Positions 2,019-57,532 of a DNA stretch of 64,000 bases are shown piece after piece. The notes beneath the pieces are model-generated. The model was not told the DNA's origin and made no database searches. It saw only the letters and a program-made list of their open reading frames with translations. This DNA is from Picochlorum sp. SENEW3 (lineage: Eukaryota). Position numbers and translations under genes: made by a program. Every line of letters begins with the position of its first letter. Position 1 is the stretch's first letter. The DNA lies in assembly GCA_034226945.1 (NCBI GenBank), contig CP120459.1:124001-188000 (forward strand), written 5' to 3'.

Positions 2019-3200
2019 ATGCGAGCAAACTCGTGCGTTGTCATTGACGTGGGGAGTCAATGCGTGAAAGCTGGGTTTGCGGATACGTTTCCAAAGGAGC
2101 AAGAGCCCCATATAGTACGTCTAGATACTAATGAATTCATCCATCTTGATACATTCGTGACTGTGTGTGTTTGGGGAGTGTAGATTGTAGAAAATGCAGT
2201 TGTAGCAGAGGAAGATATCCCTCAGGCGTTAGAATACGATGATGCTTTGAAGCAAAAGGTGTTTTATATACATCCGATGAAGAAGGGGGTATTGAGTGAT
2301 GTGGATGCGTTGGAGGTGGTGATTGGGCATGTGTTGTATGGCATGTGTGGTTGGATACAGGGTGCAGAGGAGCATGTGGTGATGGTGGAGCCTATTCTTA
2401 CGTCGAAATTGGATCGGGAGAGGATGGCGCAGGTGATGTTTGAGACGTTTAATCTGTCGACGTATTTTGTGACGGATGCTGCGGTGGCATCGTTGTATTC
2501 TGTGGGCAAGACTGGGGGCATTGTGGTTGATGTCGGGTTTGAAAAGATTGATGTGGCGCCGGTGTTGGAGGGCGTGATGCATCCTTCTGTGGCGAGTCGA
2601 GTGCCTGTTGGGGGCAAGCATATGACGGATGTGTTGATGGATGTGCTGAATGAGGAGTATGGGTGTCATGTGTCGTTTCATGAGGCAGAGGACATCAAGG
2701 TGGGGGCATGTCGGCATGGGATGAACGAGGAGTCGTACGAATATACGCTGCCCGATGGGCAGAAAATTAATGTGGTAGATCAATTAAGTAGGGTCAAGTC
2801 GCGGATTTTGGAGCCGAGTTCGTTTGGGTTGGATGTCCCATCGTTGGCAGAGTCGTGTATTCATGCGAGTATGGTGACCACGGTGCATGGGGAAAGGGAT
2901 TCTAGGAAGACACTGATGGAGAATGTATTTATGTGTGGTGGAGGGAGTGGTGTTCCTGATTTGTCGGTTGATTTATTGAAGCAGATATCGTCGAGAGCTC
3001 ATGCATCACTGACTCCTGGATTGTGTCAGGTACCAGAGCACATGCCTCAGCATACGGGGCTGTATTCGTCTTGGTTTGGAGGATCTGTGATTGGGTCTGT
3101 AATTTATAATCAAGCGAATGCTCAAATAGGGCAGCAAGCTGTGACCAAAGGGGAGTATCATGAATATGGGCCTAGTGCAGTTCATCGACATTGTAGCTGA
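2019..3200 (+). CDS. ARP7: Actin-related protein 7 (nuclear ARP); exons 2019-2114 and 2184-3200
   Basis: Exon 1 (MRANSCVVIDVGSQCVKAGFA) carries the actin phosphate-1 motif. GT-AG intron 2115-2183 keeps the frame. KIDVAPVLEG, VPEHMPQHTGLYSSWFGG and VTKGEYHEYGPSAVHRHCS resemble plant ARP7. Confidence 0.85.
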
Positions 3201-3289
3201 GTGTAATTTTGATTGTCACATCGTCAAATATATAGTACGTCAAAAAAATGCATGCACTGTGTAAAATTAGAAAGACAAGTATCTAGTTC

Positions 3290-3518
3290 TCATGCTTTTG
3301 GCTTTTTTCTTGAGCCTGGTGGCCTACCCCTGCGAGCTTTGGGCTTGACGATTATACTGATCGATAATTGGCGGCCCATCCTGTCGAGGTTTCATATCCA
3401 AATCCTCATCCTCAAAACTGCTATAACCAGTTTCGACAGGTTCAGTCCCCACTGTGCATCCGTTCTTTGAGTCGCATCTACCTTGACATCTACACTAGTT
3501 TCTTTTTCAATGGTCCCA
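3290..3518 (-). pseudogene. Decayed duplicate of the 3' part of the bromodomain gene
   Basis: 3201-3349 matches 5209-5357 and 3360-3518 matches 6627-6792. About 1.27 kb is deleted between the two blocks and replaced by a 10-nt filler; there is also a 7-nt deletion and substitutions. Confidence 0.9.
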
Positions 3519-4183
3519 AGAAGAGGGCAGAATGTGTATCAGATGGTGGTGCAGTGTCATCAAAGGGTATGTCTCTTGAAGATTACATTGTACTGTTGTG
3601 TGGGGAGCTTTGTAGGCCACCTTCATTGCTTTGAAAAGGTTGAACCTGTAAAATTATATTTGAACGCATGACGGCTACCATGGGAATATCTGAAGACATC
3701 CATCCGTGAATGTGGATGGCTGGAATTGTCAAGTCTTCTTGCTCACTCCAGTTGGAGATGTGGTAAACTGGTTTCATCACAAGGTTTTGAGTCCTCGTGC
3801 TATCAGCAAAATACAACCGAATGTACTACTTTAATGCACTGCCATGTTCTCTGTGCTAATGGTGTCATTGCGCGTACAAACCCCCGGGCAGATGATTTTC
3901 CAATCCACGCAAGCACAAGAGAAGGTACCCTCTTCCATTGGAGAAATCAGACGAAGCTTCCATACTTGCACGTGGCAATCTTTACAGCTGACACGTGTTC
4001 TCTCATCTGTCCGAGTCAACATAATAGAGTTGACTCGAGAACAACCAGCGTAATGAAAATCTCGCATAATAATTACATGATATTCCTTGGTGGACAGTGT
4101 GTACAAAACCTTTACAAAAAACCCATTATAAATCCCTCACCATATCTCTCGAAAGCCCATTGTACTTCATACTGTATCTCAAC

Positions 4184-4633
4184 ATGGGACGCAATGATAT
4201 GATTCAAATGTGCTTGGCACTCATGTTCTACATGATGTTGGCTGTGTTGTTGGGGAGTCAAACAAGCAGTGCCCAATCCAATCCGGAGGATTTTGCAGAC
4301 TCCTCTGGTCCGTGCGCCTGCAGGAATGGGCAGTGCAGGGAACTCACTTTTACTCCTTCAGAATGCGAGTACAACGGGTCTTCTAAATCATGCCGCGTTT
4401 CTGACGACTGTGAGAGGGCTCGTGAAACATTCTTTGGCAAGTACCTCTGCTGTACTGATGAAGAGGAGGACTACACAGTCTGTGCCACCCAGGGCGGCTT
4501 TGATGGCCAAGGGAGCTGCAGAAATGACGGCGATTGCGACATTACTATTGGAGACGTCTGCGTACGCAAAGATTTCGACGACGCCACACCAGGAGGATGC
4601 TGCGCTGTTCCATATGATGATGGAAGTAGTTGA
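4184..4633 (+). CDS. Small secreted cysteine-rich acidic protein (149 aa), orphan
   Basis: Signal peptide (MCLALMFYMMLAVLLGSQTSSA) and 14 Cys in the mature part, arranged as two related modules. TATAAA at ~4127 and the green-algal poly(A) signal TGTAA at 4721. Confidence 0.75.
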   Translation: MGRNDMIQMCLALMFYMMLAVLLGSQTSSAQSNPEDFADSSGPCACRNGQCRELTFTPSECEYNGSSKSCRVSDDCERARETFFGKYLCCTDEEEDYTVCATQGGFDGQGSCRNDGDCDITIGDVCVRKDFDDATPGGCCAVPYDDGSS

Positions 4634-4849
4634 GGGCCCCTGCCTGCTTGCTTGTGTGGGCGGCACACGCGCATCATGTGTCTGTTTGTGTATTTCATGC
4701 TCATTCATGTACTATGTTTGTGTAAGAAACAATGCCCCTTCACCGAAGATGCGATGCGATCCTGCTTCTTGTGGCCTCAACTAGAGTGAGGCAGGCAAAT
4801 TTGCCTCCTTGAATTAAAGGTCATGACCCAGGAAACCCCTCCCTGGGAT

Positions 4850-5208
4850 TGTGGTAGATCAATTAAGTAGGGTCAAGTCGCGGATCTTCCGCGCTGCTGA
4901 GTTCGTTTGAGTTGGATGTCCCATCGTTGGCAGAGTCGTGTATTCATGCGAGTATGGTGACCACGGTGCATGGGGAAAGGGATTCTAGGAAGACGCTGAC
5001 GGAGAATGTATTTATGTGTGGTGGAGGGAGTGGTGTTCCTGATTTGTCTGTTGATTTATTGAAGCAGATATCGTCGAGAGCTCATGCGTCACTGACTCCT
5101 GGATTGTGTCAGGTACCAGAGCACATGCCTCAGCATGCCAGGTTGTATTATTATCCCGGGGAGTATCATGAATATGGGCCTAGTGCAGTTCATCGACATT
5201 GTAGCTGA
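4850..5208 (+). pseudogene. Decayed duplicate of the 3' part of ARP7
   Basis: Matches 2771-3200 with a net +4 frameshift at ~4885, an 83-nt segment replaced by 8 nt at 5150-5157, and point substitutions. The 5' end is absent. Confidence 0.92.
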
Positions 5209-5297
5209 GTGTATTTTTGATTGTCACATCGTCAAATATATAGTACGTCAAAAAAATGCATGCACTGTGTAAAATTAGAAAGACAAGTATCTAGTTC

Positions 5298-7511
5298 TCA
5301 TGCTTTTGGCTTTTTTCTTGAGCCTGGTGGCCTACCCCTGCGAGCTTTGGGCTTGACAAGCTCGGTTTTGCTGGAAAATGGGCCATCTCTGGCGGCCATC
5401 TTGTTGTCTGATTGAAGCCCAAGGGCCATGGTAGATAATGGTGTTTTACCATTGGATACTGAGGGCTCTTTGGCATTGGATGTAGCATCTTTCTGCGTGT
5501 CATCTGATGTGACTTTGCCACTGGACCCAGACCGTTTTCTCTTGTCGGAGAGAGGGGCTCTCACTGCCATCATGCTTCGGCCACGTCCATCGCCCATGTT
5601 TTTCCTTGCATTGCTGGCGATGGCAGAGTTGTATCTTTGTCTTTCTTCCTCCTCGTTCTGCTTGTGTCTCATTTCGTATGCTTCATCAGATGTATCTTCC
5701 TCGCTGCTTCCCTCGTCACCTAGAACTTGCTTTGCAACAGTTGATGCCACAAGATTCACTGTCACGGCTGTAGCTTCCTTTTTTCCAGTGTCTTCGAAAG
5801 AGTTGGCACGATTTGTCTCTTCGAATCCCTTCTTGTATGCTCTCATCACTTCTTCTCGCTTTTTCAGCTCTTCCTCTGGCAGCGTACGGACAGGAGGAGT
5901 CTCAATTGTCTTCACCTGAACTCTTTCAACGAATTTTGGAGATCCCATGGCTCCAGGAATGACAACATCATTCAATCCAAATTCCTCACGCGTCCTTCGT
6001 TTGCGCACAAGTCGGCCACCACTGTCATCAGAGTTGTATGGAACAGACATGGATGCCATACGGGAAGGGGTTGTTTGCCTGCTCAATCCTCTGCCTCGTC
6101 CTCTGCCTCGACCACGCCCACGTCCCGTTCGGATAGCAGGTGGCCTGCCTTTGAAGGATGGTGGGAATGCAGATGGAGGGCGCAACGCGGTCAATGTTCT
6201 TCGTGCTGCTTTCAGTTTGGCCTCAATAATTGTGAGAGATGCATGGCAAACTGCTGGATAGTTGGGATTCATCACGCTTGATGCTTTGCTCGAGCTCTCT
6301 TTCAATGCCTCCTTACTGTGTCCATACTGTTCCCTGAAAAATGGCACATGTGCTTCCAAATTAGCAGCTGTTAGGCCTGGAACATTGACCCTGGGCTTTC
6401 TTGCAAGCTCCTCTGTTGCAGAGGTCTCATCTAATTTACTCAATTCATCAATATACTGTTGCTTCTGCCTTTCAAGTTCTCTAACACGAATTCTAAGCCA
6501 TTGTAATCTCCAGAGAATACTATTCTGCGTTTTCTGCTCGATACCAGGAATAGAAGAATCCACTGTGATTGACATGTCTTCTTCCTTTTCCCGGGGGTTG
6601 ATCGGGACAGTCTCAACAGGGGACTCATCGATAATTGGCGGCCCATCCTGTCGAGGTTTCATATCCAAATCCTCATCCTCAAAACTGCTATAACCAGTTT
6701 CGACAGGTCCAGTCCCCACTGATTTCTGTGCATCCGGTCTTTGAGTTGCATCTACCTTGACATCTACACTAGTTTCTTTTTCAATGGTCCCATTGGGTGG
6801 TACATGCTTCTTCTCCTCAGCCTCATCTTCGCACGCCTTCACACCTGGTTTTCCACCAGGGTGCAGTACATCCAATGCTTTACGACCATTTAACTCGCAT
6901 TCTAAAAGTTGCTTCATCCCAGCTCTGAGAATAACCAGTGCCTGCTTATGAACTCGTGACCTCTTCTGGTTGTACAACATCGCATTGTTGAATATTAGCT
7001 CAAAATCTCTAACAAGATCCTGCCATACAACATATTCACTAGACATGATTTTATCCCTCATAAAATCAAAGCACATTGGTTTTTTGATGACCGAATGATA
7101 GTTGGGAGCGTCCTTCTCAGTCACTGGATGTTGGAACCAGCCTTCTGTATCCAGTTGGCTCACCTTGTCGACGATACCAAGCAGACATTCCCTAGCTTCT
7201 TCCATCTTACTGGCGTCACCATTGGAATGGCGTTGCTGAGATGAAAAGCCATCCCCACTCGATTCCTTGAAGCCACTATTGTTTGCTACCCTAGTTGCCC
7301 CAGAGGCTGCCTTTTGGTCCTGTCCAGGAGTTGCAACGTTATTATGATTATCAGATCCTGCATATTCTGAAGCTTCTCTACTACCACTCTCTTTGTGAGC
7401 ATGGGGAGCACCATCCTCACAGTGGCAACCATTCAAGTCTGTGTCAAGCCCTGGAGAAGAATGGCCACCCACCGACTGCTTTGCAGCCTCCTCCTTACAC
7501 TGACACATCAT
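5298..7511 (-). CDS. Bromodomain-containing protein with coiled coil, RG repeat and C-terminal AT-hook-like motif
   Basis: Bromodomain WFQHPVTEKDAPNYHSVIKKPMCF...FELIFNNAMLYN; GRGRGRGRG tract; terminal RRGRPPGS. Confidence 0.88.
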   Translation of the reverse strand: MMCQCKEEAAKQSVGGHSSPGLDTDLNGCHCEDGAPHAHKESGSREASEYAGSDNHNNVATPGQDQKAASGATRVANNSGFKESSGDGFSSQQRHSNGDASKMEEARECLLGIVDKVSQLDTEGWFQHPVTEKDAPNYHSVIKKPMCFDFMRDKIMSSEYVVWQDLVRDFELIFNNAMLYNQKRSRVHKQALVILRAGMKQLLECELNGRKALDVLHPGGKPGVKACEDEAEEKKHVPPNGTIEKETSVDVKVDATQRPDAQKSVGTGPVETGYSSFEDEDLDMKPRQDGPPIIDESPVETVPINPREKEEDMSITVDSSIPGIEQKTQNSILWRLQWLRIRVRELERQKQQYIDELSKLDETSATEELARKPRVNVPGLTAANLEAHVPFFREQYGHSKEALKESSSKASSVMNPNYPAVCHASLTIIEAKLKAARRTLTALRPPSAFPPSFKGRPPAIRTGRGRGRGRGRGRGLSRQTTPSRMASMSVPYNSDDSGGRLVRKRRTREEFGLNDVVIPGAMGSPKFVERVQVKTIETPPVRTLPEEELKKREEVMRAYKKGFEETNRANSFEDTGKKEATAVTVNLVASTVAKQVLGDEGSSEEDTSDEAYEMRHKQNEEEERQRYNSAIASNARKNMGDGRGRSMMAVRAPLSDKRKRSGSSGKVTSDDTQKDATSNAKEPSVSNGKTPLSTMALGLQSDNKMAARDGPFSSKTELVKPKARRGRPPGSRKKPKA

Positions 7512-24450: not shown

Positions 24451-25638
24451 ATGATGCGTAGTTCAGCTCTCCTTTTGATCGCGATTCTCGCGGGTGTGTC
24501 AGCAGAACGCAAGGTGCGTGGCGTCAACAACAGAAGGGCGGGAGGTCTCATTTCCCCCTGAATAGAGTCACATACAGATCAAGTTTTTATCTTTAATTTT
24601 TTGATCTCTTTCTGTATCACTTTCTAGTGATTCAAGGGAAAGAATCTGTTTGCACGGTGATTCTGTGATCACCTCGCAGGGTTGCTTTTATGGCCCTGGC
24701 TGATTCTGAGAGATCAATTGCATCCAATACTGTAATCATTATAAAAATTATTCTGACGATATTGTACGTATTTGTGTATGCAGTTGCTGCAGACTGAGTG
24801 TGGACCTCTGGTCGACGGGGTGATCAATCCCCCAGAGAACGCTGTCTTGTATCTCTCCGTCCGTGGTGAGGGTGAGATAACATACAAGTGTACCGAGGCC
24901 AACAAGCCAGTCGTACTCTCTGAGAAGGGAGAATTTGCAGCCGATCCTGAGATTTCAGAAGGTTGGACCGCAGAAGCTGAGACCAAGGATGGAGTCCTGC
25001 AGCTTACAACAACCAACAGCAACCCAGATCCATCTGCTAAGAACACTCTCACACTTGGAGATCAGCCAGTTGTTAGACCAAGGGTCAATGGGGCACCAGA
25101 TGCTCGCTGGGTCGTCGTCAGTAATGAGGGAAGCTCTGCAGCACAGGGAGGTATCCCAGGGAACAACTATGTCACTCGCACAGAGTCAGAAGGTGGAGCT
25201 CCACCAAGAACCTGCGAAGCTGGCGAAACCGTTGATGTCCCACTTGAGTCTACATTCAACATCTACTCCTGCGACAGAGCTTACTTGGTTGGAGATGCTC
25301 CAGCTTCTGCCCCAACTGCAGATGAACCAGCAGCAGCACCAGTGACTGCAGATGTCCCAGAACCATCCACAGAAAGGCCAGCAGCAGCACCAGTGACTGT
25401 AGATGTCCCAGAACCATCCACAGAAAGGCCAGCACCCTCGCCAGTCGTTGTTGTGCCAGCCCCAGAGCCAACTGTTGCACCAGTCCCTGTTCCATCTCCA
25501 GCAGCAGTGCCACCGAGCCCTAGCCCAGTGCCAGTGCCAGTACCAGTCGCACCAGCTCCAGCTCCAGCGTCTGCTGCCTCTAGCCTGTCTGTAGCTATCG
25601 CTTCCATCGCATCCCTTGTCGCTGCACTGTTTGCATAA
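24451..25638 (+). CDS. Secreted DUF3455-like protein with Pro/Ala-rich stalk and GPI-anchor-like tail; exons 24451-24513 and 24784-25638
   Basis: Signal exon MMRSSALLLIAILAGVSAERK|LLQ; RGEGEITYKC and YVTRTESEGGAPPRTC...VPLESTFNIY resemble DUF3455; hydrophobic C-terminus. Confidence 0.72.
25327..25436 (+). repeat. 51-bp coding tandem repeat, ~2.2 copies (PAAAPVT[A/V]DVPEPSTER)
   Basis: 25327-25377 and 25378-25428 differ at one base. Confidence 0.92.
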
Positions 25639-26002
25639 GAAGAATCAATTACATATGACTTATACTTGGAATACAGTATATGGGAGCCTTCTTGTGTAGA
25701 GAAGAGCATTGCATGTACACATCCGAGTGAAATTCAATTCTGTAAAGAATTTAATCACTAGTAGCGTGGAGTCCATACACAGAAAACCCTAGCATTAGGG
25801 TCCATGCCCGTGGGTGCGGGCGCCCTTGGATGTGACGCGAAGATCTATACCCTCATTATACATGGCAGTCATGATACGGAAACGGCACATTCAGATTCCA
25901 ATCATTTCATCAATTCTTTGTAAATACAGTAAACCATCTTTGTCAGAGAAGGATTCTGCCAAGATCGTCAGATACTGGTCTCCCGCAGCAAGATTTAAAA
26001 CA

Positions 26003-27072
26003 ATGGGCTTACAAATCTCTTTTTCTGCCCTGGCGGCAGTGTTGCTTCTTCTTCAGGGCGTATGCGCATCTGAAAGAGTTTTGATGCAAGATCCGGTGCG
26101 AAAGATGTGTGCTTTGTGATGCATGGTGATAAATCAGCGGAACGCGGCCAGTGTGCTGTCGAATCTAGCACGGCGTGCAAGAAGAGTGACCACTGCGCTC
26201 TCATCCATTGACTCAATGTGCGTCATCTATTGCAGTTATTGACCAATAATAATAACAATTTACCCCTAAAGGAGGAAGATATGCCAGTCTGCCCCGACCA
26301 AGTTCCAGTCACAGAGACTGGTGTCCCAGGGGTGAGCGATAACCAGCGCCTGGAGATCAGCACTCAGAAAGGCAAGGCGTTCAGGATTTTTGACTGCATC
26401 AACGATAAACCTGTTCCGTATTCCGAGTATAATGCCAAAATCAGTGATATTAAGGGTGATTGGTGGGGAGAGATGTTTTATCAGGATGGGTTCCCCATCT
26501 TCAAGCTCAACTGGGCCGACCCATACAATGACGACAAAGTATACTCAAGAACAATTATTAGTTTCAAGGAATTTGTTGAAGTGCCTTCTCCAGATGGTAC
26601 AAGTGCTCCATGGGCCAGATATCCAATCATGAGTGACGATGGAACCAGGCCAGGAGCATTCAAATTTGTAGAGAGAACTGAGACCAGGGGAGGACTTCCA
26701 CCAGAGTCCTGTGGAGGCCAACGCCAGGTCCAGGTTCCATTTGAAGCATACTTTTACTTTTATCCTTGCAGAGAGGAAAAGAAGGAGGAACCAATGCCAG
26801 AACCAGAGCCATCTCCAGAACCAGAGCCATCTCCAGAGCCAGAGCCATCTCCAGAGCCAGAGCCATCTCCAGAGCCAGAACCATCTCCAGAGCCAGAACC
26901 AACTCCAGAACCAGAACCAACTCCAGAACCAGAACCAACTCCAGAACCAGAGCCAGTAGAGGTGACCACAACTCCTGTTGACAGTATCGCATCCACCTCG
27001 ACCGAATCATCAGCAAGTGCCCTCGTCTCCTCAGCCCTTGCCATGGCCACTCTTGTCATGATGGCAATGTAA
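26003..27072 (+). CDS. Second secreted DUF3455-like paralog with (PEPEPS/T)n stalk and GPI-anchor-like tail; exons 26003-26095 and 26236-27072
   Basis: Signal exon [28 protein letters not shown]...[16 protein letters not shown]...[10 protein letters not shown] aligns with the upstream paralog; C-terminus [21 protein letters not shown]. Confidence 0.72.
26797..26955 (+). repeat. 18-bp coding tandem repeat, ~9 copies ([12 protein letters not shown])
   Basis: CCAGA[A/G]CCAGA[A/G]CCA[T/A]CT units are directly visible. Confidence 0.95.
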
Positions 27073-53345: not shown

Positions 53346-54047
53346 TTAATGCAACACAATAAGTGGACTCTGGCAATTGGTCGTGCAGTACTTGGTCGTT
53401 GATCCGAGGAAGAACTCGGACACTCTTCCTCTGTTATGCTTGGCCATGCACACAGCTCCAGCATCAAGGGTCTGTGCCCTCTTGCAAATTGCCTCTCCAA
53501 TAGAATCGGCATCTGTCAAAAAGTGCACAATTTCCACCTGGTATGGAATATTTTTGCTCACAACCTTGGTCACGAATCTCTTCTTCATCATTTCTTTGGC
53601 ATCAGCAATATGCTTCAAATCCACCTTGGGGTCTGGCTCCACTGTCACAATAGAGTCCATGGCTCCATACCCACCAGAGACCACCTCTGGCATTGGAATC
53701 GGGATGACATGCAGCAAGTGGATCTCATCCCCTTCCCTATAAATGTTATCTAAAACCCATGTCAGAACATGTTCTGCTGCCTGCACAGGAAAACCGTGAC
53801 ATCCAGTCAGTGACACGCGGACGATGGAACACGTCAGCACGATATGCGTTCCCATGAACAGCCCTCCTGACCCATTAAATCATTCATACATGACATGAAT
53901 ATTCCATATAATGAGCACCGAGATCCCTAGCAGGCTGTGTGGGAAAGGGTGACCGTCTCGTCGTGATGGTCTTCTTTTTCATGGGACTCGGGGTTTCGTA
54001 TCACGTACGTCTGAATCGTCCACAGCAACAAGGATATTCCTAGGCAT
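53346..54047 (-). CDS. Universal stress protein (USP); exons 54009-54047 and 53346-53780
   Basis: MPRNILVAVDDSD|AAEHVLTW...LLHV...IGEAIC...FFLGSTTKYC...PLIVLH; 228-nt intron, phase 0. Confidence 0.92.
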
Positions 54048-54214
54048 AACGTCTTTTTTGTTTCAGTGAAATAGTTTGATTAATTCGATGTGATCGTCAC
54101 CGTGACTCGAGTCGTACAAGTGATGCATCATGTCCTAGGGTGGGTCGCTGCGATATATTGGCGGTGTTACGCTGGTGTCCGCCTTTTGATCGGACGGATA
54201 CGATTGATCGCTGT

Positions 54215-54657
54215 GATGTCTTTGTGTCCCATCCCAGGGGTTATTTGATCGGATTGACACAGTCTCTCGGCGTAGACTGGGAATCTCGTGGTTGATGGGC
54301 GTCCTGTCCCTGTGGATCGATGGTTTGGTAGAACATGGCACAAGATCTCATCTTTTGTTTGCTGCCGATGTCCTTGAACGTACAGGAGAGTAGATGGAGC
54401 CAGGACAGTATTCCAGACTGGAATTTCCAGTATCGGGGTGCGCGTGTATCTAACCGCTCGTCGACACACGAGCGCTATGGCTGGCGAGGACTGGTAGTAC
54501 CTTTTTCAGTCTGAAATGTCTAGACATGATGCATAAGGAATGCAAAGACAGAGATGCTCCTCCTGTTGGGCTGGGTCAGTTCTGGTTCTGCGCAACTGCT
54601 CTGTTCGTGGTTGTATTTGTGGCGTTGGCTGCATCCATTCTTGCCCATCAGAATCCT
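54215..54657 (+). repeat. 443-bp direct repeat, copy 1 (promoter plus first 44 codons of the sulfotransferase)
   Basis: Appears identical by eye to 56088-56530 (offset 1,873). Confidence 0.95.
54526..54657 (+). pseudogene. Truncated 5' duplicate of the sulfotransferase gene; reads on as a chimeric ORF to 54927
   Basis: MMHKECKD...AHQNP is identical to the start of 56399-57532, then diverges at the insert junction. Confidence 0.85.
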
Positions 54658-54680
54658 TGGGACCTCAGACAAACATCGAC

Positions 54681-55904
54681 TCATGGGATAGGGCATTCCC
54701 CATTATTGTCTGGCCGCCCTCCATTGAGCCCGTTGATACAAAAATATATGTTTGACGATTCATTCTTAGCAAGAGAGGAAACGTTGAACGGGGATACGAT
54801 ATACTCCGTAGCAGTAGGTGTCAGAAGGCCCCCAAGCCCAGTGTATGTGAATCCATTCCCTGAAAACAAGGCATTCATGCCACCGACACAACTTTGCACC
54901 AAAAATGCTCTGAACCACTGTGCCTGATCGATTACATCTATCGTATTGGCAAGTTTGTCTGCGAGGATTTTAGCAGCAGGAACCGTTTCAGCAGGATCGC
55001 AATATCTGGCAGTGAATGGGGCCGCCATAGCCTGAACTTTTGATTTCCAATCCCTGCCTTGGTAGCCCTCACAAAGCTCACTGTTGGGATTCGCAGCAGA
55101 CGGATATATCTCGATAGTGTTGGGTCCCGGTGAGGGACATGACTCATAGTCTACTCTGTCCCTGACAACCACAGGTGCAGTGGAATTGACACTGGGGAAA
55201 TCAAACTGGGCGTATGCACAGGAGGCCGGGCACCCCGTCAGCGTGTTGAATTCAAGATCTTGCAACAAATCAATTGCTGCATCTGGTATCGTGAGATTCA
55301 AGTCATTGTACATCCATTCGTAATACTCCTTCAAAGCCCTCCATGTTGGCTGCAGTGGCCCAATATCAGCGTTGAAGGGGTACTGCGATGGATTTTGACT
55401 CGCTACCAAGCGATCGATAGCCCTGGTATCGAACACCGTCAACACATACACCTTATTGATTTCGATATATTCCGGGGAATAGCCAATTTCTTGCAGCAAT
55501 GAGAACCCTGAAGAGTCTGTCTCCAAACCTGGAAAGTCAGGATCAGAAAAATTCAAGCTGTTAGAGGGTAAATTATAACCAAATGTTTCGGGATAGCCCG
55601 CTCTGAGATATGCCTCAAGAGCATCATGCCCACTGTAAAATGTAGCAGGCTTCGAATCGACTTGCAGGTACACATCATCAACACTAGACCCGCTGAAGAT
55701 CCGGCCAATCAGATTTTCAGAAACACAACGAGCCTCTCCAGACTCGAAGGCGGCGACAAACTCAGGCGGCGTCTCGACACATTTATTTTGCTCCGCAATT
55801 ATTAATTCCACGTCTTCGCGATTGGGGTCAATCGCCTCCCTTGCAAACGTATGTGGCCCCAGCAAAAACACCAGCAAAACCCATTTGGTCACAGTTCCTC
55901 CCAT
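54681..55904 (-). CDS. Intronless secreted hypothetical protein (407 aa)
   Basis: Long ORF; signal peptide MGGTVTKWVLLVFLLGPHTFA; several Cys; globular composition. Confidence 0.82.
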   Translation of the reverse strand: MGGTVTKWVLLVFLLGPHTFAREAIDPNREDVELIIAEQNKCVETPPEFVAAFESGEARCVSENLIGRIFSGSSVDDVYLQVDSKPATFYSGHDALEAYLRAGYPETFGYNLPSNSLNFSDPDFPGLETDSSGFSLLQEIGYSPEYIEINKVYVLTVFDTRAIDRLVASQNPSQYPFNADIGPLQPTWRALKEYYEWMYNDLNLTIPDAAIDLLQDLEFNTLTGCPASCAYAQFDFPSVNSTAPVVVRDRVDYESCPSPGPNTIEIYPSAANPNSELCEGYQGRDWKSKVQAMAAPFTARYCDPAETVPAAKILADKLANTIDVIDQAQWFRAFLVQSCVGGMNALFSGNGFTYTGLGGLLTPTATEYIVSPFNVSSLAKNESSNIYFCINGLNGGRPDNNGECPIP

Positions 55905-56087
55905 CTTACGAGATGACCTTGTATGTGTATACATATATATATCTAGTTCAACTACACGATTCTAAGGAATTGAACCCTAAAGTGTTTCTCTGTTAACAAT
56001 GTCCATACCCTGCGTTACGTTTGGGCCCAATTGGGTGGCCACCGAAGGTGTCGATCGATCCTATGCAGACATACGTGGAATGGATGG

Positions 56088-56530
56088 GATGTCTTTGTGT
56101 CCCATCCCAGGGGTTATTTGATCGGATTGACACAGTCTCTCGGCGTAGACTGGGAATCTCGTGGTTGATGGGCGTCCTGTCCCTGTGGATCGATGGTTTG
56201 GTAGAACATGGCACAAGATCTCATCTTTTGTTTGCTGCCGATGTCCTTGAACGTACAGGAGAGTAGATGGAGCCAGGACAGTATTCCAGACTGGAATTTC
56301 CAGTATCGGGGTGCGCGTGTATCTAACCGCTCGTCGACACACGAGCGCTATGGCTGGCGAGGACTGGTAGTACCTTTTTCAGTCTGAAATGTCTAGACAT
56401 GATGCATAAGGAATGCAAAGACAGAGATGCTCCTCCTGTTGGGCTGGGTCAGTTCTGGTTCTGCGCAACTGCTCTGTTCGTGGTTGTATTTGTGGCGTTG
56501 GCTGCATCCATTCTTGCCCATCAGAATCCT
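56088..56530 (+). repeat. 443-bp direct repeat, copy 2
   Basis: Appears identical to 54215-54657. Confidence 0.95.
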
Positions 56531-57532
56531 AGAACCGCATCGGTTATGATTTGGAATAGACAAATGTGTGGTCCTCGATTGATTGTGATTGGTACACAAA
56601 AGGGTGGGACGACATCTCTGTACAAGTACATCAAAAATGTGACTTGGATATCAGTTGGCAAGACAAAAGAGCTTCACTTTTTTGACAAGGTGTACAAGTC
56701 AAGGAGGAAATGGGATACAGTGAATGATTTGAAGGCATTGCAGCAGAAATACTTGAAGGATTTCGGGCTTGATGTGGTCCATGGAGGGTTATCACCATTG
56801 AGAGAGAGTCGAGATGACACATGTACTGATTATAGGACTGGACTGACATTTTGCTGTGACGACCCAAATACGGTGTACTCGGATGTGACGCCGAGGTATA
56901 TGATTATTCCGCAGGCTCCTCGATTGATACGGCGGATAACAAATAATCCATGGATTGTGGCATTGTTGCGTGAGCCGGCAGCACGGGCTGTGTCTCATTT
57001 TAGGATGGAGTTTGGATCAGATGATGGGAAGAACCTGGACGATTTTGCGTCCGAATTTCATCAGAATGTGCATCGTGGTATCAAAGTGACGAAGAAATGC
57101 TTATCGGAGCAGAAAATATCGGGGATAGATTGTCAAAGGCGGCTGAGCCTGGACCATGATGTAGATATGGTGTCAAGAGGTTTGTATGCACATCATCTTA
57201 GGCCTTGGTTTTCGACATTTGGGAGAGAAAAGTTAGTTTTATGGGTTTCGGAGCGTTTTTCGGATGATCCAGAGGGTCACTTGATCAGTCTTCAGAATCA
57301 AATAGTTGGGGCAAATGTATCAGTATCTCGGGAAATTTTTCAGCAAGACTACAATGTGAAATACAACGTGGATGTTCAGACGGTAGAGCCTTGGGAATCG
57401 ACAGTGAAGATTCTCAGGGAATTTTATGAGCCATATAATCGAGAGCTTGTGTATATGCTCATGGAATGGGGCTATTATGATGTGGCTCGTGACATTCGGC
57501 AGCTGTGGGACATATCTCTCAAGTCAGCATAG
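56399..57532 (+). CDS. Type II membrane (Golgi-type) sulfotransferase, heparan-sulfate 3-O-sulfotransferase-like
   Basis: N-terminal TM anchor; 5'-PSB IVIGTQKGGTTSL; KELHFFD; TPRY; 3'-PB LLREPAARAVSHF; LREFYEPYNREL. Confidence 0.9.
   Translation: MMHKECKDRDAPPVGLGQFWFCATALFVVVFVALAASILAHQNPRTASVMIWNRQMCGPRLIVIGTQKGGTTSLYKYIKNVTWISVGKTKELHFFDKVYKSRRKWDTVNDLKALQQKYLKDFGLDVVHGGLSPLRESRDDTCTDYRTGLTFCCDDPNTVYSDVTPRYMIIPQAPRLIRRITNNPWIVALLREPAARAVSHFRMEFGSDDGKNLDDFASEFHQNVHRGIKVTKKCLSEQKISGIDCQRRLSLDHDVDMVSRGLYAHHLRPWFSTFGREKLVLWVSERFSDDPEGHLISLQNQIVGANVSVSREIFQQDYNVKYNVDVQTVEPWESTVKILREFYEPYNRELVYMLMEWGYYDVARDIRQLWDISLKSA

Follow-up and report, generated by a model that had tools for sequence, protein, structure and literature searches.

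In a 64,000-nucleotide stretch of the genome of the green alga Picochlorum sp. SENEW3 (GenBank assembly GCA_034226945.1, contig CP120459.1, positions 124,001 to 188,000 of the forward strand; hereafter "the window"), we found one intronless gene, here called the cargo gene, inserted between two identical copies of a segment of host DNA which includes the start of a sulfotransferase gene (window positions 54215 to 56530). We conclude that this locus is a real, young insertion of the repair type. The origin we favour, to which we give a probability of roughly 0.6, is that the cargo was written in when DNA synthesis switched templates in the repair of a break or fork, as a heritable "cycle of templated insertions". 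This class of rearrangement is known; what is new is the heritable algal setting, the long duplication of a host gene end, the whole secreted-type genes which are inserted and a cargo family found at a different position in every comparison that could be made. The interpretation offered by an earlier note on this DNA is partly supported by our results.

Structure of the insertion

The two repeat copies (54215..54657 and 56088..56530, both on the + strand) are equal at 443 of 443 bases, with 0 mismatches in pairwise comparison, and mismatches resume at 54214 and 54658, giving sharp identity borders on both sides of the repeat. The repeat period is 1,873 bp and the unique spacer between the copies is 1,430 bp. 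An exact match of 443 bp cannot be of chance origin. Each copy comprises 311 bp of intergenic DNA followed by codons 1-44 of the sulfotransferase gene (PF00685), and the segment had no further copy elsewhere in the assembly which we searched (13.85 Mb, 14 contigs). The insert is flanked by direct repeats of non-transposon host sequence longer than 30 bp; the host duplication is in direct orientation and the path returns to the host chromosome. This bears out the claims of the earlier note that identical 443-bp repeats surround a 1,430-bp cargo with one intronless gene, in our hands a single open reading frame (ORF) of 406 codons, and that the repeats are host gene sequence and not long terminal repeats (LTRs).

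The cargo gene lies on the - strand (54681..55901) and is single-copy, both its DNA and its protein matching just their own place in the assembly. Its upstream DNA (186 bp, 55902..56087, - strand) is bounded by repeat copy 2, and on its other side a 23-bp remnant (54658..54680, - strand) separates the cargo stop from the junction with repeat copy 1; it bears a weak likeness to the beginning of the C-terminal tail encoded in relatives' copies of the gene. Both host genes are whole. On the left, a universal stress protein gene (53346..53855, - strand, PF00582) is intact and keeps the entire 670-bp divergent intergenic region; on the right, repeat copy 2 runs into the intact sulfotransferase gene (56399..57532, + strand, 377 aa), which is 89-91% identical to its counterparts in five relatives, two of them named Picochlorum, and stands head-to-head with the cargo gene at a distance of 497 bp. 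The left repeat also creates a 133-codon chimeric ORF, which starts in repeat copy 1 and runs antisense to the 3' end of the cargo gene (54526-54927, + strand).

The insert bore no mark of the common classes of mobile element. Across the whole window there were 0 pairs of inverted repeats of at least 40 bp, and the cargo ends share no word of seven or more bases, hence no terminal inverted repeat (TIR) of the kind that bounds a DNA transposon or a gene-capturing miniature inverted-repeat transposable element. The layout is not that of an LTR retroelement, as the repeats are the 5' region of the sulfotransferase gene and the cargo is single-copy and without a Pfam match, nor that of a long interspersed nuclear element (LINE) or a retrocopy, as the insert contains no LINE sequence, no self-similar LINE DNA and no poly(A): there is no A-run in the insert, whose end lies 23 bp past the cargo stop. 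TGTAA is the green-algal polyadenylation signal, and the first one on the cargo strand after the stop belongs to the stress-protein gene; it should be noted that just 127 of 264 long ORFs have a TGTAA within 250 bp.

Words of the stretch were also sought in sequencing runs. Six runs from two other studies contained 0.66-0.88 of them, where 0.47-0.54 would be expected from an empty site and 0.44-0.51 from the cargo alone, which shows that both parts co-occur in the samples and is silent on their adjacency. Further runs with a word share of 0.42-0.57 are compatible with an empty site or the cargo alone and are no evidence either way, and the same applies to two RNA runs at 0.05-0.06. The physical adjacency of repeats and cargo is that given by the assembly, and the repeats are perfectly identical, as would be expected had one 443-bp segment been doubled when contigs or haplotypes were joined. 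We nevertheless judge such an artefact highly improbable: the contig is of chromosome scale (1.11 Mb), the six runs lie above the word share of either part alone, and diverged versions of the same layout (93-99.5% identity between repeat copies) are present at two other loci.

Further cases of the same layout

One of these loci lies in the window itself (2771..6792, no strand assigned) and is a decayed duplication of the junction between an actin-related gene and a bromodomain gene around a mosaic insert, agreeing with the earlier note, which had seen in it an older instance of the same architecture. The insert encodes a 149-aa cysteine-rich secreted-type protein (4184-4633) and contains pieces matching C12:389917-390495 (93%), C12:393364-393405 (98%) and C8:573882-574162 (88%), all of which remain in place as donors; paralogs of its cargo are found on C12 and C3. 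The C12 region (389.6-393.3 kb; L034-L035), donor of two pieces, is a cluster of three secreted-type genes. The other locus (C1:475.6-480.2 kb) shows the full layout, with a 613-bp host duplication of the end of a phosphatase/hydrolase gene. Its insert joins three parts: 959 bp copied from a peptidase gene at the contig's far end (C1:1559468-1560428, 95%), 118 bp copied from a gene 4 kb off, and a 227-codon secreted-type ORF which is hydrophobic at both termini and has a 76% paralog on C11. The pieces of both sister inserts differ in orientation, and non-coding flanks are included with them.

The C1 case came from a self-comparison of 915 kb of the genome, made up of the window together with survey blocks (766 kb) and targeted stretches (85 kb). 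It confirms that the two loci of the window are not the only ones and that the route is recurrent, as had been proposed. With a transposon-rich C6 block excluded, the 766 kb survey contained three spaced duplications with a length of 200 bp or more and 90% identity or more, one of them with the full layout. The other two, on C9, duplicate whole or nearly whole genes, and their spacers hold pieces of a small inverted-repeat element and showed no gene cargo; one C9 spacer, when searched genome-wide, proved to be a mosaic of several loci. One gene-bearing case per 766 kb corresponds to ~18 per genome, with a 95% range of 0.5-101. We did not count C7:228.3-230.2 kb, which is an in-frame internal gene duplication, or the transposon-rich C6:600-700 kb.

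The junctions of the sister loci, where both templates are known, show up to 7 bp of microhomology (range 0-7 bp), near-blunt joins and inserts of up to ~19 nt, and some of the short junction inserts resemble adjacent sequence. Together with the copying of sister inserts from distant loci, these repair-like junctions uphold the suggestion of a transposase-free route of the break-repair type. Among the DNA-repair genes of the genome we found a polymerase-theta-like gene and two Ku matches.

All gene-bearing cases (3/3) carry a secreted-type ORF. Secreted-type was defined by a hydropathy rule with a preset cut-off of 2.3, at which 34 of 423 background ORFs qualify; the cargo protein at 54681..55901, with a hydrophobic N-terminus scoring 2.28, falls just under this, and at a cut-off of 2.25 the background is 39 of 423. 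Against this background of ~9%, 3/3 gives p ~0.0008; however, two of the three cases come from a window which had been flagged for the pattern, and the independent case alone gives p ~0.09. The enrichment in secreted cargo anticipated by the earlier note is thus seen among the gene-bearing cases (n = 3) and confined to them, as the two C9 duplications showed no gene cargo.

Two other explanations involve mobile elements. A giant target-site duplication, in which a LINE endonuclease and reverse transcriptase would have made nicks in the host at a distance of 443 bp and placed a cargo cDNA there, agrees with the intronless cargo gene and with the 45 reverse-transcriptase matches in the genome, endonuclease-bearing LINEs among them (two LINE copies typed with Pfam both have endonuclease and reverse transcriptase, at ~1,240 aa). 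We consider it very unlikely, as the insert is without LINE sequence or poly(A), the sister inserts are in mixed orientation with non-coding flanks, no duplication flanks any of three LINE copies in the stretches examined (one copy may be truncated by the end of its stretch), and an intron difference between two relatives' copies of the cargo gene (L009 and L007, below) looks like gain. Dualen LINEs have a frame of ~3,000 aa, and the longest frame among the 45 matches, at 1,392 aa, falls short of it.

Even harder to credit is a role for a non-autonomous DNA transposon, either as carrier of the gene or as the cause of a break which was later patched. An element of ~613 bp with TIRs of at least 33 bp (L100, L102, L103) is indeed present in at least four copies at 91-93% identity, with pieces in the two C9 spacers, yet no element sequence occurs at the three gene-bearing loci, the cargo ends lack a TIR and the cargo is single-copy. 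A second family of such elements is present in L106.

The cargo gene and its protein family

The cargo protein of 406 aa (417 aa if an upstream ATG is used) is not an orphan, contrary to what had been supposed for both inserts of the window: its family numbers 157 representatives at E 0.001, all eukaryotic and unnamed, and the first locus's cargo has the paralogs mentioned above. Thirteen homologs are full-length (identity 39-70%), and the family, which includes proteins labelled Micractinium and Alphamonas, ranges from green algae to other protists. In comparison with the L003 copy, the nearest locus with DNA (80% identical), the cargo gene has a dN/dS (ratio of nonsynonymous to synonymous substitution rates) of 0.15 across 373 codons, similar to the 0.14 of a control gene, and is under purifying selection. 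Its GC content (0.48) and its GC content at third codon positions (0.49) are inside the range of six host genes. A viral origin (90 pattern matches in viral contigs, 0 confirmed) and a prokaryotic origin (62 pattern matches in prokaryote genomes, 0 confirmed) were rejected, as was the label "protocadherin-related 15" on one homolog, which has no domain support.

From its N-terminus the cargo protein is likely to be secreted. In ten of the 13 homologs the last conserved cysteine is followed by a spacer rich in Ser and Thr and then by a hydrophobic C-terminal end, which may be an anchor signal; this tail is absent in three. In the window the cargo protein stops at the last residues of the conserved domain and has no tail, and its stop lies 23 bp short of the repeat. 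The same terminal residue is found in an environmental fragment which is 99% identical (2/163 residues differ); the stop is therefore no error of assembly, and it is probably older than the repeat. Other Picochlorum-type assemblies have the cargo gene annotated in split or decayed form, as a 130-aa C-terminal piece or as two adjacent gene models (P0111, P0066 and P0071), which suggests that the gene decays frequently.

The structure model of the cargo (built with 72 sequences) is confident, with a predicted local distance difference test score of 92 and a predicted template modelling score of 0.89. No known family or fold was clearly matched. Pfam assigned 0 families above cut-off to the cargo and to 9/9 full-length homologs, no family was common to two or more of the 72 cargo-family members, a PDB sequence search gave 0 matches and an Atlas search no match; Foldseek at E 0.001 against PDB and viral models found no match to the cargo model, a wide fold search of 48,161 chains had none at Z of at least 5, and a second fold look gave a best Z of 2.1. 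No fused long form of the family was found among 8,000 candidates, which is a weak test. The top row of the wide search was the streptococcal NADase SPN (PDB 3pnt) with Z 3.9, root-mean-square deviation 3.9, 135 aligned residues in model region 40-374 and 9% identity, a Z no better than noise and equalled by unrelated rows. Conserved in the cargo family are R67 (37/42 rows), S90 (31/44) within an S90-G91 motif and E366 (44/46). This arginine, Ser-Gly and late-strand glutamate come in the same order as residues R289, G330 and E389/E391 reported for SPN (PMC6893971); the likeness is one of residue order. An ADP-ribosyltransferase-like or NADase fold, as hinted at by the model, is a lead only.

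Location of the cargo gene in relatives

Ten metagenome loci encode homologs of the cargo, and none of them (0/10) matches the stress-protein or the sulfotransferase gene by blastn; tblastx returned 18-codon fragments inside hit sets driven by the cargo. The flanks of these loci are mutually dissimilar, except inside near-identical groups. Three relatives' cargo sites could be looked up in the Picochlorum sp. SENEW3 assembly, and in all three (3/3) the neighbours are present and the cargo is absent. In L012 (85% DNA identity) the cargo gene, with its tail, lies directly upstream of a TPR gene, which together with the next gene is collinear on C3 here; in L004 it stands ahead of a block, four genes of which are collinear on C5 here (the L004 contig has two further genes which were not found in the stretches of this genome examined); and in L009 it lies between two genes which stand 316 bp apart on C2 here. 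Neighbour-gene names outside Pfam assignments are our reading from the sequence. L007 and L009 are 82-86% identical in the cargo gene and have different upstream neighbours. In a tree the window copy groups with the L003/L012 type and P0001 (support 99/97).

The cargo gene is therefore non-collinear with its homologs in relatives, sharing host neighbours with 0/10 and being missing here from 3/3 of their sites. Whether by serial movement or by duplication with reciprocal loss, the net relocation is the same. As related algae carry the gene at other places, such genes likely move around the genome. Repeats of the kind seen in the window flanked none of the relatives' cargo copies in seven loci.

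This distribution bears on a further explanation, that the cargo gene was already resident head-to-head with the sulfotransferase gene and had its 3' end overwritten later by a leftward copy of the 443-bp segment. We think this unlikely. In its support, the tail-less allele seems older than the repeat (0/443 differences, upper bound 0.7%) and no empty site was seen in relatives. It is countered by the cargo being beside neither host gene in any relative, by the nearest relative (85% DNA identity) having a TPR gene downstream of it, by the lack of a tail remnant left of repeat copy 1 and by the recurrence of the same layout with proven ectopic inserts.

Three features of these sites were recorded in passing. 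The L009 homolog contains two similar GT-AG introns (~1069-1139 and ~1653-1747) which are absent from the L007 copy; we rejected intron loss by retroposition, as the likeness of the two introns makes gain likelier. From their sequence they look like a recent gain of repetitive introns, presumably introner-like. In L012 the tail end of the cargo homolog forms a tandem array of about three units with a period of 104 bp (217-521). Head-to-head with the TPR gene on C3 here, where L012 has the cargo gene, stands a gene for a 670-aa secreted-type protein (C3:656488-658497; L020:1488-3497) with two Cys-rich repeats related to the cargo of the window's first locus.

Proposed origin

In the origin we favour, host synthesis would have proceeded to 54657 and then jumped to an ectopic template, from which 1,430 bp were copied, comprising the whole ORF, 186 bp upstream and 23 bp downstream. 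Re-priming on the host 443 bp upstream would have led to this segment being made twice, and the donor copy would later have been lost or segregated away, turning a duplication into a move. According to Woodhouse et al. 2010 (PMC2869330), roughly half of unlinked transpositions should lose the donor in this way, by segregation. Each break lies in one copy while the other copy is whole, and for this reason a gene is added without killing a neighbour.

The layout fits the definition of a cycle of templated insertions in Li et al. 2020 (PMC7025897), where a host segment is re-replicated on either side of a string of templates, and our sister loci likewise string together 2-3 retained donors. The cycles described there are somatic and in tumours, whereas here the insertion is heritable, in a 13.85-Mb alga, carries whole genes and has lost its donor. 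Gene movement by break repair in Oryza (PMC3615480) is also copy-and-paste with less than 10 bp of microhomology and no transposon signature; its breakpoints are mostly precise, in contrast to the hundreds of target bases duplicated here. The closest algal precedent is the target-site duplication of Dualen LINEs in Chlamydomonas, for which PMC9977147 describes host duplications of hundreds of bases (median 900 bp) flanking the insert; in that case the LINE itself was inserted, whereas our insert is a cellular gene without LINE sequence. Replitrons (PMC10288648) and the case in PMC13390643 did not fit the layout. Our literature search found no description of this layout in Picochlorum; the genome papers of the genus and their supplements were outside that search.

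Transposed genes in Arabidopsis (PMC2869330) share with this locus a non-collinear gene, direct repeats of host gene sequence and donors which are often missing, and the flanked classes there include defensins and small secreted cysteine-rich proteins. The authors of that work prefer excision as a circle followed by homologous insertion, and the repeats there are often found at the parent site too, whereas the repeat here is unique to the target and the sister inserts are multi-donor mosaics. Applied to our locus, an extrachromosomal circle with the cargo and one 443-bp host segment would have recombined into the host and duplicated the segment. This yields exactly the observed product and has the Arabidopsis precedent of genic flanking repeats and lost donors, but the circle itself requires two non-homologous joins between host and cargo, the 443-bp segment is nowhere else in the assembly, and the sister donors are retained at 2-3 places each, which copying explains more simply. 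We therefore view a circle as rather unlikely. Switching between DNA templates is favoured over a circle or reverse transcription because the sister loci are mosaics of several retained donors in mixed orientation.

A number of points weigh against template switching at this locus. There is no donor for this cargo in the assembly, and neither copying nor junction microhomology is measurable at the locus itself. The last 17 bases of the cargo end match the host flank before repeat 1 at 10/17 (p ~0.014 against random pairs), which is a weak resemblance and the sole junction trace here, and a circle of host and cargo DNA leaves identical junctions. The dS between the cargo gene and the nearest relative's copy (0.78) exceeds that of the control gene (0.47), and the cargo and L003 copies may be old paralogs with reciprocal loss and not one moving gene. 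With a tail-less allele that looks older than the repeat, a two-step history fits equally. Scans with the sulfotransferase for the relatives' target site gave bacterial matches of 22-37% or nothing, and no empty site was seen, and 200 kb on C10, C11 and C2 contained no duplication at all.

It should be noted that the genome is gene-dense (ORFs of at least 140 codons cover 74% of 730 kb here), and because of this there is little room for insertions. A target duplication lets a gene land inside a coding region with both neighbours surviving, and may be a route of gene gain or relocation in such genomes. The locus offers a near-pristine snapshot, in a cultivable alga, of a rearrangement class best known from tumours, and the cargo adds an uncharacterised, confidently modelled protein family. 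New leads are the bias towards secreted cargo and the wandering of the cargo gene. The predominance of secreted-type genes is likely due to their relocation being tolerated or profitable, and not to selection by the machinery. The repeats do not differ at any base (upper bound 0.7%) and make a good loop-out substrate; loop-out between them could restore the empty site and would delete the only copy of the cargo gene. A wider and more speculative idea, which we hold to be improbable, is an itinerant secretome in streamlined green algae, carried by templated-insertion cassettes capable of loop-out, with the present cargo a secreted NAD-consuming enzyme which went from anchored to released. If true, it would give transposase-free, reversible presence/absence variation of secreted and surface genes.

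Other observations

The uncounted C7 region (L042; C7:227971-230445 here) holds an ORF of 825 codons in which an 881-bp segment is internally duplicated in frame (98%), and which we read from its sequence as a probable doubled aldo-keto reductase. At C9:113.1-117.9 kb (L085) there is a duplicated pair of divergent related genes, assigned to no family, with repeated Arg-rich "RRRL" motifs and an additional piece matching C6:650 kb. In the C6:600-700 kb block (L074-L083) there are LTR-like repeats of 213 bp, LINEs whose frames are 1,244 aa long, and large, unassigned transposase-like ORFs which also occur on C4. Elsewhere in the window, at 24778-27072, two adjacent related-looking ORFs carry Pro/Glu and Pro/Ala tandem repeats with units of 18 bp and 51 bp.

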